Shown here: piece by piece, positions 194-7,124 of the stretch
How the letters are laid out: every line of letters starts with the position of its first letter
Numbering within the stretch: position 1 is the first letter of the stretch
DNA from: Nitrospirota bacterium
GTDB taxonomy: Bacteria; Nitrospirota; UBA9217
Reading direction: 5' to 3'
DNA: 34,637 nt
Assembly: GCA_029858565.1 (NCBI GenBank)
Contig: JAOUEV010000036.1
Coordinates: forward strand, 1-34,637
Notes under the pieces: generated by a model
What the model was told of the DNA's origin: nothing
What the model saw: the letters and a program-made list of their open reading frames with translations, nothing else
Databases searched by the model: none
Position numbers and translations under genes: made by a program

Positions 194-1537
194 CTACTTA
201 CCGCTTATGGAGAGCTCCTTGATGCGCAGCGAAGGACTGCCGATCCTGCCGGAGAACCGAAGGTCGCTGCAGACCGCGTCAACGTTCATCATCACATCAA
301 GGATATTGCCGGCAATGGTGATCTCGCGGACCGGGTAGGCCTTGGCGCCCTTCTCGATCCAGAAGCCCGTAGCGCCAACAGAGAAGTCGCCGGATATGGG
401 ATTGGCAGTATGTGCACCCATGATCTCGGTGACCAGAAGGCCCCGTTCTGTATCGCTGATGAGCTGAGCAGGAGTGATCGTACCGGGCTGGATGAATAGG
501 TTTGTCATACCAACGCCGGGAATTCCCTTGAACCCGCCGCGGATGCCGTTGCCAGTCGACTGTGTGCCATCCTTGCGGGCGGTATAGGCATTATACAGGA
601 ACATCGAGAGACGTCCCTTGTCCACCACGGTCTTGGTCCGCGTGGGCACCAGTTCGTCGTCCGAAGGAGCCGTACCTAGCCCGCCTTCACGAAGGCCGTC
701 GTCAATGATCGTGATCAGGGGCGACGCAATTGCCCTATCCAGTTTGCCGATCAGGAGGGATTTCTTCTTCTGCACGTTCTCGGCAGAGAAGCCGCTTGCC
801 AGGATCGAGAGGAATTCCTCGGCAACGGCATTGTCGAGGATCACCGGAGCCTTGACCGAATCAATATGGCGGGCTCCCAGCAGGTCCAGGGCCTTGCTTG
901 CGGCGCGCCTGCCCACGCCTTCGATATCAATGTCCTTGTAGAACCGGCGAACATCGAAATCCCAGCCCGCCTGGGCCTCTCCCCCGGCTTCAGCGACCGC
1001 TTCGATGCTTGCGGATACAGCGGTCGAACGATAGGAAACCTCATTGCCCCGGCTGCTCCTGATGAGCGTTTCCGATTCAGAAAAGCTCGCCGATGCCTTA
1101 CGAATGCGCTTTATCCGGGAGTCAACTCCATAGGCCGCCCGCTCCATGGCCATGACCCGGTCGATCTTTTCCTGCTCTGAGATCCCGGCCACGACAGGAT
1201 CATGGATGATCACGTGCGAATAGGAAGCGCCGGCTATTTCCGGCAGAACTGCAAGCGGGTCCCGGTCAATGCTTTTTGCGTTATCTATCGCCCCGTCAAC
1301 GAGCGTTGCCAGGCCCTCTCTGGTGAAATCCGTGGTAAAGGCGAATCCTATGCGCTCGTCTGTCAGGACCCGGAGACCGATGCCGATGTCCCGGGCGCGC
1401 TCAAAAGCGTCGACCTTCTGGTCCTTGATCTCCACGGACGTCGCGACCGAGCTGCGAAGATAGATCTCCACCCCGCCGGGGCAGCATTTAGCCGTCCGGG
1501 CCAGGACCGTGTCTGAAATATGTTTGGGGTCGATCAT
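194..1537 (-). CDS. pmbA: TldE/PmbA family protein (non-catalytic partner of TldD)
   Basis: N-terminal GIGLRVL..RIGFAFTTD and C-terminal ANPISGDFSVGATGFWIEKG..PVREITIAGN..SPSLRI are typical; no HExxxH. Start trimmed to MIDPKH (1537) because the longer ORF overlaps queD. Confidence 0.9.
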   Translation of the reverse strand: MIDPKHISDTVLARTAKCCPGGVEIYLRSSVATSVEIKDQKVDAFERARDIGIGLRVLTDERIGFAFTTDFTREGLATLVDGAIDNAKSIDRDPLAVLPEIAGASYSHVIIHDPVVAGISEQEKIDRVMAMERAAYGVDSRIKRIRKASASFSESETLIRSSRGNEVSYRSTAVSASIEAVAEAGGEAQAGWDFDVRRFYKDIDIEGVGRRAASKALDLLGARHIDSVKAPVILDNAVAEEFLSILASGFSAENVQKKKSLLIGKLDRAIASPLITIIDDGLREGGLGTAPSDDELVPTRTKTVVDKGRLSMFLYNAYTARKDGTQSTGNGIRGGFKGIPGVGMTNLFIQPGTITPAQLISDTERGLLVTEIMGAHTANPISGDFSVGATGFWIEKGAKAYPVREITIAGNILDVMMNVDAVCSDLRFSGRIGSPSLRIKELSISGK

Positions 1538-1565
1538 AGGTGATCGTTCGGATGCGGGAAGCTGA

Positions 1566-1934
1566 TTATTCGAAGTAGCTCGCTGATGCAGTGTCGGACT
1601 CCCAGACCGTGACGCTGGCGACCTCGACATTGCCGTCGTCGATCTTCTTTGCCATGCTGTCGTAGATCCATTTTGCCAGGTTCTCCGACGAAGGATTGAT
1701 CTGGGTAAAGGGGAAGATATCGTTCAGGAAAGTATGCTCGAGCTGGTCCAGGACCTCGCGCAGATGTTTCTTGAGGTCGTGAAAATCGATCGCCAGCCCC
1801 TGCTCGTTCAGGCGCTCCGCCGTGACGGCAACGGTCACCCGCCAGTTATGGCCGTGCAGCCGTTCGCATTTGCCTTCGTATCCCCGCAGCTGGTGAGCAG
1901 CGGCGAATTTTGATTCAACCATGAGTTCGTACAT
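1566..1934 (-). CDS. queD: 6-carboxy-5,6,7,8-tetrahydropterin synthase
   Basis: FAAAHQL, CERLHGHNW, LAIDF, NPSSENLA and VTVWES motifs of QueD/PTPS. Confidence 0.95.
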   Translation of the reverse strand: MYELMVESKFAAAHQLRGYEGKCERLHGHNWRVTVAVTAERLNEQGLAIDFHDLKKHLREVLDQLEHTFLNDIFPFTQINPSSENLAKWIYDSMAKKIDDGNVEVASVTVWESDTASASYFE

Positions 1935-1941
1935 GGCGGAG

Positions 1942-1970
1942 ATATTAAGTTATGGTCGCGAAAAAGTCAA
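1942..1970 (-). promoter_or_regulatory. Putative sigma70 promoter of queD-pmbA (leaderless geometry)
   Basis: TTGACT(1970-1965)-N17-TAATAT(1947-1942), then 7 nt to the ATG; no SD. Confidence 0.55.
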
Positions 1971-2031
1971 CAGGCAAAACCGGCTGCTTTTTTTCTGGAT
2001 AAAATCAACGGATTCGGATATGCTGAATGCC

Positions 2032-2703
2032 ATGAAACAGCCCAGGAACGTGTCGCTTTTCAAGGACCTCTCCGATGCCGAGTATAAGGAGCTGGAGCCT
2101 TATCTCGCGACCTCGGAGATCAAGAAGAAGGAAACGATCTTCTCCGAAGGGGAGCCCCCGGAATGGTTCTATGTCGTGCTTTCCGGCAAGGTCAAGATCA
2201 CCAAGCTGTCCCAAGACGGCAAGGAGATCATCCTCGAGGTCATATCGCCTACAGATATCTTCGGCGGCGTCGCGGTGATCAAGGGATTCCCCTATCCTGC
2301 CAACGCGGTCGCAATGGAGGACTCGGAGATCCTCAAGATCTCCCGCAAGAACCTGATGCGCCTGGTGGACCGTTTTCCGAACCTCATGTACTGCATGGCC
2401 ATGCAGCTGGGCGACCGGATGAAGAGCTCCTACGATTCGCTCAAGAATATCGCCCTGGAGCGGGTCGAAGCCAGGATCGCCGCTCTGCTGCTCAAGCTTG
2501 CCGGCAAGATCGGCAAGGAGACCAAAGAGGGCCTTGTGATCGATATGCGGTTGACCAAGCAGGATGTGGCCGACATGGTCGGCACGACCGTTGAAACATC
2601 GATCCGCACGTTCAGCAAGTTCAAGAAGCAGGAACTGGTGTCCGAAGTGGACGGGAAGATCGTCATCAAGGACCGCGACGGTCTGGCGTCCTTTTCGTCA
2701 TAG
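2032..2703 (+). CDS. Crp/Fnr family transcriptional regulator (DNR/HcpR-like, no Fe-S cysteine cluster)
   Basis: cNMP-type beta-roll (IFSEGEPPEWFYVVLSGKVKITK..DGKEIIL) and Crp HTH (LTKQDVADMVGTTVETSIRTFSKF); only one Cys. Start is 2032 or 2020. Confidence 0.9.
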   Translation: MKQPRNVSLFKDLSDAEYKELEPYLATSEIKKKETIFSEGEPPEWFYVVLSGKVKITKLSQDGKEIILEVISPTDIFGGVAVIKGFPYPANAVAMEDSEILKISRKNLMRLVDRFPNLMYCMAMQLGDRMKSSYDSLKNIALERVEARIAALLLKLAGKIGKETKEGLVIDMRLTKQDVADMVGTTVETSIRTFSKFKKQELVSEVDGKIVIKDRDGLASFSS

Positions 2704-2772
2704 CGAAGAAGCTCTGGGCTCATGGCAAACGACGAAGAGCTGCCTTGCCGTCATGGACAGCGACCTCCCTAA

Positions 2773-3180
2773 CTACGAACTTACCGGCGGCATCATGGTC
2801 TTGAGCATGTTATAAAAGAACAAGAAGACCGAAACAAGCTCGACCACACCGGCAAGGACCGTCAGGGCGACCAGCGCGCTCGACGGATTGTACAGGTTGA
2901 GGGTGTACGCCGCCAGCATCACGACCAAACCCACGTTCGCCATCCAGAACTGCACTTCCCCGATCTTTTTGCTGTGCATCTGCCGCCCCATGAACTTCGG
3001 CAGGATATGGTAGCCCACGCCGTAGATCATCATGGAAACCCATCCAAGCATGTTAAGATGGGAGTGAACGAACTTGAGCGCCATCGCTTTTTCGCTCCCC
3101 AGCATGGCGATGCCGACCACTGCAGCCAAGCCTAGATACACGATGCTCATGATGATGAACCTGCGAACGAATGTTTCCAT
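2773..3180 (-). CDS. Small ~4-TM membrane protein resembling the C-terminal helices of heme-copper oxidase/NO reductase subunit I
   Basis: Four hydrophobic segments; VHSHLNMLGWVSMMIYGVGYHILPKF motif; GAGGAGG SD upstream. Confidence 0.75.
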   Translation of the reverse strand: METFVRRFIIMSIVYLGLAAVVGIAMLGSEKAMALKFVHSHLNMLGWVSMMIYGVGYHILPKFMGRQMHSKKIGEVQFWMANVGLVVMLAAYTLNLYNPSSALVALTVLAGVVELVSVFLFFYNMLKTMMPPVSS

Positions 3181-3211
3181 TTACTGACCTCCTCGGGATC
3201 TTTTTGCAGAG

Positions 3212-3220
3212 AGTATAGCA
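3212..3220 (-). promoter_or_regulatory. Extended -10 element (TGcTATACT) for the membrane-protein gene
   Basis: Near-consensus TGnTATAAT, starting 29.5 bp from the centre of the 3239-3254 palindrome. Confidence 0.6.
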
Positions 3221-3238
3221 TACTGACACGGCTGCGGC

Positions 3239-3254
3239 TATGATGCCGGTCATA
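3239..3254. promoter_or_regulatory. Crp/Fnr-type operator 1: TATGA-TGCCGG-TCATA
   Basis: Perfect 5-6-5 inverted repeat with CRP-box geometry (TGTGA-N6-TCACA); second copy at 3313. Confidence 0.75.
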
Positions 3255-3312
3255 CATGCCGGCAATGCTATTTGTCCGCCGGTCCTGCATCTCTCCTATG
3301 TTTTTCCTGCCC

Positions 3313-3328
3313 TATGATATGCGTCATA
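3313..3328. promoter_or_regulatory. Crp/Fnr-type operator 2: TATGA-TATGCG-TCATA
   Basis: Same arms as operator 1; centre is 28.5 bp upstream of a TGgTATCAT extended -10. Confidence 0.75.
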
Positions 3329-3345
3329 CTGTTCCTGGCGGAACG

Positions 3346-3354
3346 TGGTATCAT
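3346..3354 (+). promoter_or_regulatory. Extended -10 element (TGgTATCAT) for the DUF1858 operon
   Basis: Near-consensus; would place operator 2 at about -41.5. Confidence 0.6.
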
Positions 3355-3392
3355 AAGTCCACAACAAGGACCCAAGACCCAAGGAGGTTGAC

Positions 3393-3605
3393 ATGACCGC
3401 AGAGAAGAATAAAGTGACCAAGGACACGCTCATCGGCGATGCTATCAAGAACGTACCCGGAGCAAGGGCCGTCATTGAGAAGTATTTCGGCAACGGCTGC
3501 TTCACCTGCCCTGGCATCAACGTGGAGTCCATATCCTTTGGCGCCATGATGCACAATCTGGACCCGGACAAGATCGTTAACGAGATCAACGAACAGGAGG
3601 GATAA
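3393..3605 (+). CDS. DUF1858-type / hybrid-cluster-protein-associated redox disulfide domain protein
   Basis: VTKDTLIGD..PGARAVIEKYFGNGCFTCP..ESISFGAMMHNLDPDKIVNEIN fits the family pattern with CxxC; AAGGAGG SD. Confidence 0.85.
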   Translation: MTAEKNKVTKDTLIGDAIKNVPGARAVIEKYFGNGCFTCPGINVESISFGAMMHNLDPDKIVNEINEQEG

Positions 3606-3606
3606 C

Positions 3607-3744
3607 GTGACAAAACCGGAGATCAAATGCTTTGTCTGCGGGTCTGACGACACCGCCAAGACATACCTGCCCTGCTATCACGAAGGCAAGGAAAAGATCG
3701 TCTGTACCCGCTGTCTTCCCGCGCTGATCCATGGATCTCACTGA
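3607..3744 (+). CDS. Unannotated 45-aa Cys-rich putative metal-binding protein (MTKPEIKCFVCGSDDTAKTYLPCYHEGKEKIVCTRCLPALIHGSH)
   Basis: Hand translation: GTG at 3607 just after the upstream TAA, AGGAGG SD at 3595-3600, two CxxC pairs, TGA at 3742-3744, then a terminator. Absent from the ORF track because it is short. Confidence 0.8.
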   Translation: MTKPEIKCFVCGSDDTAKTYLPCYHEGKEKIVCTRCLPALIHGSH

Positions 3745-3772
3745 AGAGATTTTACCGCTACTTTCACGATGC

Positions 3773-3808
3773 AGCCTCCGGATATCCGGAGGCTTTTTTT
3801 ATTTTTTT
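3773..3808 (+). terminator. Rho-independent terminator
   Basis: AGCCTCCGGA-TA-TCCGGAGGCT inverted repeat followed by T-tracts. Confidence 0.85.
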
Positions 3809-3847
3809 GAATAGAATTTCCTGTTCGTTCTTGGTAAATTTAGCATT

Positions 3848-4537
3848 ATGAAGAATGAATTAGCAGTCGTACTGGTAAGCGGCGGCATGGACAGCTGCGT
3901 TACTGCCGCGATCGCGAACAGGAGCCACCGCCTTGCCTTCCTGCACGTGAACTACGGCCAGCGGACCGAAGGCCGTGAGCTCCTCTCGTTCAACGAGATC
4001 GCGGATTTTTACAAGGCGGAAAAGCGCCTTATCGTGAGCATCGAGCACCTGAAGGTGATCGGCGGATCGGCACTTACTGACATTAATATCCCAGTCCCGG
4101 AGACCGGCCATTCTCAATCCGCAATCCGCAATCCGCAATCCGCAATTCCGGTAACCTACGTTCCCTTTCGCAACGCCCATCTCCTTTCGATCGCCACCTC
4201 ATGGTCAGAAGTGATCGGGGCCCGCTGGATATACATCGGCGCTGTTGAAGAGGACAGTTCAGGTTACCCCGACTGCAGGGAAGTGTTCTACCAGGCTTTC
4301 AACAAGGTGATCGAAACGGGGACGCGGCCTGAAACGCGGATCGAGATCGCAACACCTCTGATCCACATGAAGAAAGCCGAGATCGTGAAACAAGGAAGAG
4401 AGCTGGGCGCACCGCTCCACCTCACCTGGAGCTGTTATCAGGATAATGAAAAAGCCTGTGGAAAATGCGAGAGCTGCCTTTTTCGGCTGAAGGGTTTTCG
4501 CGACGCGGGCGTGACAGATCCGATCCCCTACCGTTAG
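3848..4537 (+). CDS. queC: 7-cyano-7-deazaguanine synthase
   Basis: SGGMDS PP-loop, YGQR, TYVPFRN, GYPDCR and TWSCY..CGKCESC zinc site. Confidence 0.97.
4115..4146 (+). repeat. Tandem heptamer (CAATCCG)x4 plus partial copy, inside queC
   Basis: Four perfect copies at 4115-4142 then CAAT; encodes [11 protein letters not shown]. Confidence 0.9.
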
Positions 4538-4555
4538 ATCGACATCCTCTGCAGA

Positions 4556-5806
4556 TCAGGAAAGGAAACTGGTCACCAGAAGCAGGACCGTCAGTGTGAT
4601 CAGGACCAGGACCATTGCCCAGGTGATGATGTTCATTCTCCGGGAGTTGACATAATCTCCCATGAGCGAGCGATCGTTCACAAGCCTGAGCATGATCACC
4701 AGTACGATCGGAAGCAGGATGCCGTTGATGGTCTGGGAAAAGAACATGATCTTGATGAGTGGTATGTCCGGGATCATGATGATCCCCGCGCCGATCACGA
4801 TAAAAGCGGTATAGAATCCCAGGAACTGCGGCGCCTCGCTAAAGGTCTTGTTGATCCCCGATTCCCATCCAAAGGCCTCGGACAATCCATAGGCCGTGGC
4901 CAGCGGCAGTACAAAGGCAGCAAGGAAGGACGCGTTCAGCAGGCCGAGCGCAAAGAGGTGAGCCGAGAACGGTCCGGCCAGCGGTTCCAGGGCCTTTGCA
5001 GCGTCCTCTGCCGAATCGATGATAACGCCTGCGGGATGAAGGATCGTCCCTGTGCAGAGCACAATGAAGAAAGCGATGAACACGGTCATAAAAGCGCCTA
5101 CATAGGCATCGTACCGTGCGTAGGAGTATTCCTCGACCCGCACCCCCTTGTCCACGACCGCCGATTGCAGATAGAACTGCATATAGGGCGTCACGGTCGT
5201 ACCGACCATGGTGATGAACAGCAGAAAGTAGTCACGGTCCATCCGCACCTGGGGGAAGGATATCTGCCGCGCCACTTCCTTCCAGGGAGGGTTTGCCATG
5301 AACCCGGACACCACATACGTGAAGTAGACCAGGCTGATCACGATCATGAACCGTTCTACCTGCTTGAAATTCCCCTTCACCACCACGAACCAGACGACAA
5401 AGGCCGACACCGGCACGGAAACATACTTATGGATCCCGAACAGCTCCATGCTTGCGGCAATGCCGGCGAACTCGGCGATGGTGACCGTGAGATTGGCGAA
5501 CACGAAGAGCGTCATGATCGCCAGGGTCACGCGGACGCCGAACTGCTCACGTACCAGGTCACCGAAACCCTTCCCGGTAACGACCCCCATGCGAGCGGAC
5601 ATTTCCTGGATCACCGCGAGAGCGAAGGTGATGAGCAGGAGCGCCCAGAGCAGGCCGTAGCCCTCACGGGCGCCCACGATCGAGTACGTGGCGATTCCGC
5701 CTGCGTCGTTCCCGGCATTCCCGGCAATGACCCCGGGTCCGATCACGGCAAGGACCGCGAGAATGCGGCGCTTCACAAAGAATTGTTTCAAGCGTTCGAT
5801 GACCAT
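4556..5806 (-). CDS. NRAMP-related divalent cation transporter (NRMT-like, probably Mg2+)
   Basis: Multi-TM protein; GPG..NAGNDAGGIATYS in place of DPGN; IQEMSARMGVVTGKG; GTTVTPYMQFYLQS. Start trimmed to MVIERL. Confidence 0.88.
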   Translation of the reverse strand: MVIERLKQFFVKRRILAVLAVIGPGVIAGNAGNDAGGIATYSIVGAREGYGLLWALLLITFALAVIQEMSARMGVVTGKGFGDLVREQFGVRVTLAIMTLFVFANLTVTIAEFAGIAASMELFGIHKYVSVPVSAFVVWFVVVKGNFKQVERFMIVISLVYFTYVVSGFMANPPWKEVARQISFPQVRMDRDYFLLFITMVGTTVTPYMQFYLQSAVVDKGVRVEEYSYARYDAYVGAFMTVFIAFFIVLCTGTILHPAGVIIDSAEDAAKALEPLAGPFSAHLFALGLLNASFLAAFVLPLATAYGLSEAFGWESGINKTFSEAPQFLGFYTAFIVIGAGIIMIPDIPLIKIMFFSQTINGILLPIVLVIMLRLVNDRSLMGDYVNSRRMNIITWAMVLVLITLTVLLLVTSFLS

Positions 5807-5858
5807 TATAAATATACCGGGCTGGACTACCGGGAGCAGTGCCGACAAGGGCCGGCGG

Positions 5859-7124
5859 TCAGATCTTTCTCCGTTTCTTTCTCGATGCGGGGGGCAGCAG
5901 GAAATCCACGACGTCGTCAACGGTCACGATCCCGCGCATGACCATATTCTCATCCACGACCGGCGCGGCAAGCAGGTTGTATTTCGAAATGAACTCGGCA
6001 ACGTCCATTTGTTCCGCGTCAAGCGAAAGGGTCTTCATGGGCGACCGCATGATGTCCTGCAATAGGGTCTCGGGCCGCGCCATGATCAGACTCTTGAGCG
6101 AGAGCACTCCGAGCAGCCGCTCCTGGTCATCGGTAATATAGAGATAGTAGACCGTTTCCACATCCGGGGCCTCCAGCCTCAGTTCCCGGATCGCATCCTC
6201 GACGGTCATATCAGGCGGGAAGGCCAGATACTCGGTCGTCATGAGGCCGCCTGCGGTGTCCTCCTCGTGCTCCAGAAGTTCCTGCACGTCCTCGGCCTCG
6301 TCCTTTTCCATGAGATTGATCAGTTCCTGGGCCTTGGCCTCCGGCAGATCTCCGAGAACGTCGGCAGCCTCGTCCGGCGGCATCTGTTCAAGAATATCCG
6401 ACGCTTTCTCCTTGGACATGTCATCAATGATGTCCGCCTGGACGCTCGGCTCCAGTTCGTGCAGTGCTTCGGCCGCCGTTTCGACGTCCAGCGACCCGAA
6501 AATGGCGCTCCGCTCCTTCTGAGACACTTCGCTGATGATCTCCGCGAGGTCAGCCGGGTGGAGCTGCGCGGCCTTCTGGCGGGAAACGGTCAGCGTAAGT
6601 TTGTTCAGTTTTGGCTCCACCGGCTGCAGGTAATGCCACCCGATCAGGACGTTCTGAAGACGATACCGCAGGACAGAAAGCAATCGTTCTCCCCTTGCCT
6701 CCACCCCGAGGCGCCGCAGGATGCCTCGCAGGCCGATGTCCGCCGCTATGAGCGATACCCGGCCGTTCACATCTCCCAGTTTGAGATCGTTGACCCGCAC
6801 GAGCTTGGCTCCATTGATGTCGACGATCTGTTTATCCAGGATATCCCGGCAGATAAGCACCTCCGCCGGCTCTATGACCGCAGGCGAAAGCTGGTCTCTC
6901 AGGAGGTTCACGGAAATTACCCGTTTATTGAACAGGTTGATCTGGTCCCAGGGAATGAGGTAGGTGAGCTTGCCGGACTTGACGACCAGCGCGGTTACCG
7001 AAGGAAAGGGGTCGCCCTGGCCGACAGTGATATCGGTCAGTTTCCCGATCTCTTCGCCAGCCCGGTCAAGAACCGGTTTCCTGTGCACCTCGCTGACAAA
7101 GATATCTCCGGCGAAAAAGGGCAT
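5859..7124 (-). CDS. MgtE-like cytosolic protein (PRC-barrel + MgtE N-domain + CBS pair), no TM domain
   Basis: LHPADLAEII, MPPDEAADVL, TAGGLMTTEY, YNLLAAPVVD..GIVTVDDV; ends immediately after the CBS pair. Confidence 0.88.
   Translation of the reverse strand: MPFFAGDIFVSEVHRKPVLDRAGEEIGKLTDITVGQGDPFPSVTALVVKSGKLTYLIPWDQINLFNKRVISVNLLRDQLSPAVIEPAEVLICRDILDKQIVDINGAKLVRVNDLKLGDVNGRVSLIAADIGLRGILRRLGVEARGERLLSVLRYRLQNVLIGWHYLQPVEPKLNKLTLTVSRQKAAQLHPADLAEIISEVSQKERSAIFGSLDVETAAEALHELEPSVQADIIDDMSKEKASDILEQMPPDEAADVLGDLPEAKAQELINLMEKDEAEDVQELLEHEEDTAGGLMTTEYLAFPPDMTVEDAIRELRLEAPDVETVYYLYITDDQERLLGVLSLKSLIMARPETLLQDIMRSPMKTLSLDAEQMDVAEFISKYNLLAAPVVDENMVMRGIVTVDDVVDFLLPPASRKKRRKI

Follow-up and report, generated by a model that had tools for sequence, protein, structure and literature searches.

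The locus and its divergent promoters

The DNA analysed here, referred to throughout as the window, is a stretch of 34,637 nt from a Nitrospirota bacterium (UBA9217; assembly GCA_029858565.1, contig JAOUEV010000036.1, positions 1 to 34,637 of the forward strand), and the system in question comprises four genes: one for a Crp/Fnr-family regulator and three for small proteins of 135, 70 and 45 amino acids (aa). Gene identities, conservation, operator and promoter architecture, regulon membership, fusions and folds were worked out by computation, with the layout of the locus based on open reading frame (ORF) listing, direct reading, and Pfam and NCBIfam scans. An earlier note on this DNA had described a self-contained redox or nitrosative-stress module between queD and queC. 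The Pfam scan bears out that position, with queD (PTPS) at 1566–1934 on the minus strand and queC at 3848–4537 on the plus strand. The three small proteins are, however, not a stand-alone system and form the regulator-linked core of a wider HcpR/DNR-like regulon.

As the earlier note had proposed, the regulator gene (2032–2703, plus strand; 223 aa, with the Pfam domains cNMP_binding and HTH_Crp_2) converges on the gene for a 135-aa membrane protein with an HxH motif (2773–3180, minus strand), which reads HSH at H39/H41. Orthologues of the regulator begin at the ATG at 2032, and an alternative ATG is present at 2020. The stop codons of the two convergent genes are 69 bp apart, and an imperfect inverted repeat at 2703–2748 (13-nt arms, 77% complementary) between the genes may act as a shared terminator for both. 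A divergent intergenic region of 212 bp (3181–3392) separates the membrane gene from a DUF1858 gene (3393–3605, plus strand) that encodes a 70-aa protein with a CFTC motif, recognized by both PF08984 and TIGR03980. The 45-aa gene follows at 3607–3744 (plus strand) and encodes five cysteines arranged as C8xxC11, C23 and C33xxC36. Its GTG start lies one base past the TAA stop of the DUF1858 gene, and a GGAGG sequence is found upstream of that GTG within the final DUF1858 codons; on this arrangement the 45-aa gene is predicted to be translationally coupled to the DUF1858 gene. The operon is closed by an intrinsic terminator at 3773–3804 (hairpin at 3773–3794, plus strand) consisting of a nine-pair stem, seven pairs of which are G-C, followed by a T run. 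The coupling of a CxxC DUF1858 gene to a double-CxxC 45-aa gene ahead of a terminator was thus correctly recognized from the outset, as was the presence of two operators with identical arms in the divergent region.

Operator 1 has the core TATGATGCCGGTCATA at 3239–3254 and operator 2 the core TATGATATGCGTCATA at 3313–3328; the full copies, at 3238–3255 and 3312–3329, both conform to CTATGAT-N4-GTCATAC and are 74 bp apart. When up to two mismatches were allowed, this pattern was matched seven times in the window versus a mean of 1.32 in shuffled sequence, and none of 100 shuffles reached seven. A basic question is which promoter each operator serves. For each of the two genes, sequences lying downstream of the closest box were aligned (membrane gene, 76 distinct sequences; DUF1858 gene, 68), which places a -10 hexamer at a fixed offset such that, in the membrane-gene set, T is found at +29 from the box centre in 89%, A at +30 in 88% and T at +34 in 94% of promoters. 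The hexamer pattern and offset in the DUF1858 set are nearly identical, and G at +27 and A at +41 are frequent in both sets. The predicted hexamers in the window, each at a position conserved in orthologous promoters, are TATACT for the 135-aa gene (3212–3217, minus strand) and TATCAT for the DUF1858 operon (3349–3354, plus strand). With the transcription start placed the usual 7 bases after the -10 hexamer, the predicted start of the 135-aa gene falls near 3205 (minus strand), about 41.5 bp downstream of the centre of operator 1, and that of the DUF1858 operon near 3361–3362 (plus strand), about 40.5–41.5 bp downstream of the centre of operator 2. The fixed offset and the 7-base spacing therefore centre the box at approximately -41.5, which is the class II activator position for CRP and FNR, and for this reason each box can be assigned to one of the two divergent promoters.

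Conservation of the unit and extent of the regulon

The co-occurrence check that the earlier note had suggested returned a positive answer: the four genes are a conserved unit across Nitrospirota under one Crp/Fnr regulator. Of 41 related genomes, 37 contain the 135-aa gene, as do 22 of the 24 in the same family. Nine of eleven same-family loci contain all four genes, with a pair of boxes in the divergent region; one of the other two is truncated, and one has the regulator and membrane gene only. Linkage was also counted in a species-representative locus set made up of the best 80 of 507 relatives (query alignment of 8 close sequences), nearly all of which carry Nitrospirota-type labels. The regulator gene is convergent within 400 bp of the 135-aa gene in 63 of the 72 loci with enough sequence, and a DUF1858 gene is divergent within 700 bp in 51 of 77 loci and present at any position in 64 of 77. 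In 64 of 65 loci the 45-aa gene starts no more than 80 bp after the DUF1858 gene; the one exception is cut by the locus end. A perfect box occurs no further than 150 bp upstream of the 135-aa orthologue in 70 of 78 loci, mostly 61.5–81.5 bp from the ATG. The 45-aa gene gave a single match in 25 of the 41 genomes, namely the 24 that have a close 135-aa orthologue and genome G035, in which both genes are adjacent. Among more distant homologues (20 loci, 30–60% identity), the membrane gene stands alone in 10, is linked to a Crp/Fnr gene in L028, L035 and L036, to a DUF1858 gene in L029 and L031, and to the 45-aa gene in L027. Spread beyond Nitrospirota rests on unlabelled family representatives and on Atlas leads to Gemmatimonadota, Nitrospinota and Pseudomonadota.

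The regulator scores 88.9 bits with PF00027 (cut-off 27.5) and 65.1 bits with PF13545 (cut-off 27), which places it in the Crp/Fnr family, and no NCBIfam equivalog exceeds its cut-off. Its best matches among solved structures are actinobacterial Crp proteins (E ~7e-23), and DNR is matched at 4e-17. An alignment of 80 sequences (the window copy and 79 orthologues, down to 37% identity) reveals a nearly invariant recognition helix, MVGTTVETSIRT, and conserved methionines at M95, M119, M172 and M182. The single cysteine, C121, is poorly placed and kept in 81% of the 80 sequences. Despite the actinobacterial Crp structures, identity with the cAMP receptor CRP was rejected: the score with NF008732 is 84.1 bits versus a cut-off of 266. 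The arginine that we take to bind the phosphate in the cAMP pocket is, by our reading, missing, the stretch reading FGGVAV...PYPANAVA, and this absence together with the content of the regulon argues against a cAMP-CRP reading. FNR is defined by an N-terminal cysteine cluster that holds a [4Fe-4S] centre. This cluster, also stated for FNR by Rodionov et al. 2005 (PMC1274295), is absent from the regulator, which scores 69.6 bits with the NCBIfam Fnr model (cut-off 228).

By function, the regulator resembles HcpR, in that its boxes precede hcp at 14 of 19 loci. The likeness to HcpR, DNR and NnrR, as far as these are described in the sources cited here, extends to a Crp/Fnr protein without the FNR cluster, palindromes before hcp and nor, and accessory genes of the nnrS and dnrN type; it is drawn from boxes and domains. 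The recognition helix differs, with the residues V-E-T-S-I-R, in which valine presumably occupies the position of CRP R180 and V-E positions 180–181. HcpR boxes are reported to vary by lineage in a manner tied to the residues at CRP positions 180 and 181 (PMC1274295). The box described here, TATGAY-N4-RTCATA, together with its V-E helix, adds another variant and is unlike the three HcpR motifs quoted in that account, wTGTGAn6TCACAw, wyTTGACn4GTCAArw and GTAACn4GTTAC (PMC1274295).

The regulon is not confined to the window. The earlier note had pointed out that no hcp, nor or hmp gene accompanies the module, and none is found among the eight window genes scanned (~194–5920). The whole genome, 3.92 Mb in 144 contigs, contains 15 perfect TATGA-N6-TCATA sites; 29 control palindromes built from the same five letters occur on average 1.8 times and at most 7 times per genome. 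Twelve of the 15 sites lie outside long ORFs, in 11–12 a TAnnnT hexamer lies at the expected distance to one side, and the genome encodes only three HTH_Crp_2 proteins. One box is situated 81.5 bp upstream of the start of hcp. Another precedes a gene for a dihaem cytochrome c that is followed by a 457-aa COX1-family gene, the product of which matches Pseudomonas aeruginosa NorB (3o0r_B) over its whole length at E 5e-114; by these matches the pair is identified as a cNOR-type nitric oxide reductase operon (norC-norB). The hcp and norC promoters have the same box-to--10 spacing as the promoters of the locus. A box with a suitably placed -10 hexamer also precedes a multihaem cytochrome gene whose product is weakly similar to hydrazine/hydroxylamine-type enzymes. 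Boxes with correctly spaced -10 hexamers are further found before genes for an 82-aa zinc-ribbon protein (contig C30, 6386–6682), a YwiC-like membrane protein (contig C142, 37865–38616) and several proteins of no family (contigs C137, C40, C113 and C135), all of which are candidate further members. The motif thus marks about 11 promoters, including those of hcp and the cNOR operon on other contigs, and the module therefore cannot be called self-contained.

Three side observations concern these sites. An assembly break splits hcp, with one part closing contig C144 and the other opening contig C49; the two contig ends overlap, so that the contigs are adjacent. A RuBisCO-like (MtnW-type) gene and a sulphur-transport gene are divergent from hcp. 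A region of contig C73 (16500–26500) contains two perfect boxes and encodes a protoglobin-PsiE fusion, CBS and HPP proteins, an Rrf2 regulator and a NapH-like ferredoxin protein; neither of these two boxes has a clean -10 hexamer at the expected offset.

The same targets recur in relatives. The hcp gene is present in 20 of the 41 related genomes, and where at least 200 bp of upstream sequence is available a perfect box is found at 14 of 19 loci, own genome included, 76.5–92.5 bp from the ATG; one remaining locus has a box with one mismatch and four have none. In the complete same-family genome G013, hcp is without a box, and neither the 135-aa nor the 45-aa gene was found. Matches to norC at E <= 1e-30 occur in 20 of 41 genomes, and the presence of the box separates orthologues (at least 67% identity, own genome included), all nine of which have a perfect box, from paralogues, 2 of 18 of which do. 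On these observations the regulon itself is well supported. The comparison of 20 of 41 genomes for hcp with 37 of 41 for the 135-aa gene further indicates that the small genes are the more constant part of the regulon.

The three small proteins

The 135-aa protein exceeds the Pfam cut-off for COX1 (PF00115) as a fragment only, with 41.7 bits over positions 345–398 of 436. It aligns to residues 306–402 of the cbb3 oxidase subunit CcoN such that H39 and H41 stand opposite the HVH of helix 10, which we take to be the axial ligands of two haems. The AlphaFold2 (AF2) model consists of four helices (pLDDT 97.7) and superimposes on CcoN in Foldseek with TM-scores of 0.77–0.81. Across 64 diverse family members H39, G46 and Y57 never vary, and at least 90% retain H41. 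The distribution of charged residues, as read from the sequence, puts both ends and the conserved loop GVGYHILPRF-GR in the cytoplasm, which would place the H39/H41 pair near the outer face. The JGI name for this protein, cbb3 oxidase subunit, was rejected on the basis of its four helices. Subunit I of haem-copper oxidases has a 12-helix core with six histidine ligands for two haems and CuB. The 135-aa protein is not such a subunit because only the helix-10-type HxH pair is present. The window's genome contains another, full-length COX1 gene.

A family profile run against 1.84 billion representatives recovered one-, two- and three-unit forms, with 3751 proteins at E <= 1e-3 and 1106 at the stricter E <= 1e-10. 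Of the best 150 representatives, the profile matches 99 at one place, 4 at two and 47 at three or four; two of those with three matches are ordinary COX1 proteins of full length, and 17 of the 150 pass the Pfam NnrS cut-off. A 413-aa three-unit form has HxH in all three units, and its model is a 12-helix body (pLDDT 93.3, pTM 0.92) with TM-scores of 0.78–0.81 to cbb3 CcoN and 0.71 to NorB. Protein P0121 and other three-unit proteins of ~390–420 aa likewise keep HxH in every unit, and those scanned fall below the Pfam NnrS cut-off; these all-HxH proteins look like a near-symmetric oxidase-like family. From its sequence and model, the 135-aa protein is a single four-helix unit, one third of the NnrS/oxidase core. 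The earlier note had called it a putative haem- or metal-type protein, a description that agrees with its place among the relatives of NnrS and the haem-copper oxidases.

A homotrimer would be the simplest way to rebuild the core from such a unit and is probably the form adopted. Related Nitrospirota contain fused two-unit and tandem single-unit genes (L037, 2864–3733; L039, 291–1157; L040, 566–1408; L038, 674–1556). All three related genomes with a fused two-unit gene also hold single-unit genes, a pattern that lends weak support to the trimer and suggests that mixed trimers may form.

The membrane family is not new. Pei, Li, Kinch and Grishin reportedly described it computationally in 2014 (Protein Sci 23:1220), naming four-helix 'HCO homology' proteins and NnrS as one- and three-unit oxidase relatives and proposing trimers. 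The 135-aa protein matches that reported description in being an independent four-helix gene product most similar to helices 9–12 of oxidases, with a conserved histidine, and the trimer proposal and a gene context of nitric oxide (NO) and denitrification are reportedly shared as well. To that description the present locus adds a regulator, a defined operator and promoter geometry, an obligatory 45-aa partner and the hcp/norCB regulon. With NnrS the protein shares a homologous repeat unit, an NO-type regulator and histidine on the second helix of the unit. It differs in having one unit (four helices, 135 aa) where NnrS has three, and in keeping the full HxH, which is reduced to a single histidine in the later units of one inspected NnrS-type fusion.

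The 70-aa protein is a DUF1858 protein by both PF08984 (41.3 bits, cut-off 32.2) and TIGR03980 (45.4 bits, cut-off 44.95), and the CFTC cysteines C36 and C39 are invariant in 30 sequences. Comparison by hhalign of the alignment of DUF1858 proteins from these loci with the ScdA_N-type domains of fusion proteins gave a probability of 98% at E 2e-13; a profile search of the PDB reached ScdA (9r7j_A, residues 2–60) at E = 1 only. This homology to the N-terminal domain of the RIC/ScdA iron-centre repair proteins gives substance to the repair theme of the earlier note. The protein thus shares its ScdA_N-type/DUF1858 domain with RIC/ScdA/YtfE/DnrN and with the 'hybrid cluster protein-associated redox disulfide domain' of TIGR03980; it differs from the former in lacking the hemerythrin-like di-iron domain, in being a separate CxxC protein and in having a 45-aa partner. 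A second DUF1858 domain, lacking CxxC, opens a 488-aa ORF in the same genome (contig C47, 157–1620; L126) and recalls Thermus DrpB, in which we take DUF1858 to be a domain.

What ties the DUF1858 protein to the membrane unit? DUF1858 or ScdA_N is fused to membrane units in 27 of the best 150 representatives, comprising 13 three-unit proteins, 13 one-unit proteins with DUF1858 and 1 one-unit protein with ScdA_N. The three-unit fusions often have ScdA_N at the N-terminus and one to three DUF1858-type stretches at the C-terminus. One fusion also contains FeS_assembly_P, and one short protein contains a NifU-like piece. Fusions are the usual sign that the corresponding separate proteins work together physically, and those found here therefore tie the membrane unit to the DUF1858 protein. 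Prediction of a complex of the DUF1858 protein, the 45-aa protein and zinc gave a score of 0.00, which was weighed neither for nor against binding. No title on repeat structure or DUF1858 fusions was found in the NnrS literature covered, which left subscription journals outside.

In 29 sequences of the 45-aa family, C8, C11, C23, C33, R35, C36, L37, P38, I41, H42 and G43 are invariant; H25 and the last histidine are not. The family numbers 437 clusters at 90% identity, and in the 120 clusters listed every name shown is 'hypothetical protein', from Thermodesulfovibrionales, Nitrospirota or Dissulfurispira; one homologue is on record for Dissulfurispira thermophila. No Pfam family exceeds its cut-off for the 45-aa protein, and a search of the PDB with its profile gave a chance-level match only. 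The ligand pattern C-x2-C ... C-x-H ... C-x2-C ... H-x2-H resembles RING and zinc-ribbon proteins, and zf-C3HC4_3 (RING) is matched below threshold in 21 of the 29 members (best E 1.7e-4; window copy 15.5 bits versus a cut-off of 27). A RING finger was nevertheless rejected, given these sub-threshold scores and the presence of six invariant ligand-type residues versus the eight ligands of a cross-braced fold. The 45-aa protein is most likely a small metal-binding partner, and its sequences appear to define a previously unnamed Cys5-His family that always follows DUF1858.

One observation concerns the flank of the locus. A perfect heptanucleotide repeat, CAATCCG x 4.6, lies at 4115–4146 within the queC reading frame, where gain or loss of repeat copies would shift the frame, and queC of relatives aligns with a gap or insertion at this position.

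A proposed role in nitric oxide protection

Core NO regulons are described as comprising hcp, hmp, dnrN, nnrS, norVW and the nir, nor and nos genes (PMC1274295). An NO or nitrosative theme is the best reading of the present regulon because the operator of the locus also stands ahead of hcp and norCB, in this genome as in related ones, and NO or nitrosative stress is the likely signal of the regulator as judged from the sequences. Of the suggestion in the earlier note of an NO/redox detoxification or repair system, the NO theme accordingly stands and the stand-alone system does not. NnrS, a membrane protein described as containing haem and copper, is reported to contribute to NO resistance: when it is lost, a Vibrio cholerae hmpA mutant becomes more sensitive to NO (PMC3345576). 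It is stated not to remove NO and to shield the iron pool from dinitrosyl-iron complexes (PMC9246220). The functions of NnrS and RIC/DnrN were called hypothetical or unknown in 2005 and 2012 (PMC1274295, PMC3345576).

We hypothesize, with somewhat better than even confidence, that the locus is the core of an HcpR/DNR-like regulon encoding a split, minimal NO protection complex of the NnrS/RIC type. For the signal, the trimer, haem binding, docking and chemistry, we infer the following scheme. A Crp/Fnr activator of Thermodesulfovibrionia-type Nitrospirota would bind TATGAY-N4-RTCATA boxes centred near -41.5 and thereby activate the two divergent promoters of the locus as well as hcp, norC-norB and several other promoters elsewhere. 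The 135-aa protein would trimerise into a 12-helix, haem-binding membrane body, with H39 and H41 acting as haem ligands at the subunit interfaces near the outer face. The DUF1858 CxxC protein and the Cys5-His metal-binding peptide of 45 aa would dock on the inner face, and the assembly would serve to protect or repair iron centres of the cell when NO is present, in line with what has been reported for NnrS.

Several observations weigh against this proposal. The regulator has no conserved histidine in the 80-sequence alignment and no obvious cofactor ligands by which a signal would be received. Of the 15 perfect sites, three or four fall inside coding sequence or have no -10 hexamer. A look-up of RNA runs for positions 2000–3850 listed none that contains the locus. 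The 135-aa protein scores only 17.1 bits with NnrS (PF05940, cut-off 28), over profile positions 135–237 of 371. Moreover, with hcp in 20 of 41 genomes and norC orthologues in about nine versus the 135-aa gene in 37, the small proteins are independent of either enzyme. Finally, the related genomes are kin, so that co-occurrence counts such as these are not independent events and overstate the independent support.

The principal alternative, which we regard as possible and yet clearly unlikely, would make the three small proteins the source of the regulator's signal and not its effectors: NO or nitrate/nitrite would be sensed by a haem unit in the membrane and relayed through the DUF1858 and 45-aa proteins to a Crp/Fnr protein that has no cofactor of its own. 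In the detailed form of this idea, to which we likewise give about one chance in five, the trimeric one-third-oxidase would bind NO, and the DUF1858 protein and the Cys5-His peptide would carry a thiol or metal signal. The idea draws on the lack of a conserved histidine in the regulator and on gene linkage, since it is the 135-aa gene to which the regulator gene is tightly joined (63 of 72 loci), with hcp and norCB lying elsewhere. By analogy it would resemble, again as a minor possibility, the action of DrpA/DrpB on DnrS/DnrT in Thermus, where these small conserved proteins are described as modulators of Dnr-dependent promoters (PMC6282519). In Bradyrhizobium diazoefficiens the small DUF1858 gene bsl7085 similarly adjoins nnrR, an NO-type Crp/Fnr regulator gene, and a transcription-profile table for the nnrR mutant lists bsl7085 with entries that we read as a fold change of -29.2 and a predicted box at -62 (PMC6710368). 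A four-helix oxidase-like or 45-aa Cys-rich partner is not reported in the cited passages of either account. The second DUF1858 domain, at the start of the 488-aa ORF, also fits a sensing role. However, both promoters of the locus carry the regulator's own activator boxes, which is typical of targets, although feedback loops exist; the NnrS and RIC relatives are described as protective (PMC3345576, PMC9246220); and the FeS_assembly_P and NifU-like fusions point to iron-sulfur handling. If this alternative were true, it would constitute a new kind of three-part gas-sensing pathway and would explain why DUF1858 genes lie beside NO-type regulators in both Nitrospirota and Alphaproteobacteria.

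It is improbable that the regulon answers oxygen or general redox state, with the 135-aa protein serving as an assembly or haem-insertion helper for cNOR or cbb3-type enzymes. The box spacing does resemble that of an FNR-type box, by the motifs quoted in PMC1274295, the 135-aa protein is most like helices 9–12 of cbb3 CcoN, and the genome has an additional full-length COX1 gene. Nevertheless, the regulator has a single poorly placed cysteine and no FNR cysteine cluster, and hcp and norCB, the targets that are conserved, count as hallmark genes for NO or nitrite (PMC1274295). The 135-aa gene also occurs in genomes in which no norC orthologue turned up (37 of 41 genomes versus 20 of 41 for norC at E <= 1e-30), and the fusion partners are DUF1858/ScdA_N domains, not oxidase subunits. 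A self-contained detoxification mini-system working without hcp, nor or hmp is very improbable: although none of the eight window genes scanned is one of these and many relatives keep the small genes where the hcp query found no match, the same operator and promoter geometry recurs at hcp and norCB here and in relatives, and the three small proteins match no known catalytic family over cut-off.

Our preferred model of an NnrS/RIC-like protection complex rests on a membrane family described before, and what is added here is the operator and promoter design, the regulon of the lineage, the 45-aa family and the clean split form of proteins that are fused elsewhere. The finding defines an HcpR-type regulon and its box outside the motifs quoted for other lineages, by comparison with the motifs in PMC1274295 only. 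NnrS and RIC/DnrN are among the most widespread members of bacterial NO regulons, and the locus is the smallest natural version of both, with a 135-aa protein equal to one third of NnrS, a 70-aa RIC-type domain and a 45-aa partner. The module is kept in a lineage with cultured members, under a predicted activator with defined boxes. Its parts, small and separable, lend themselves to expression, mutagenesis and structure determination more readily than 12-helix fusions do, which makes the function of NnrS and DUF1858 directly testable, and the single-unit protein bears on the origin of the 12-helix oxidase core from a four-helix unit.

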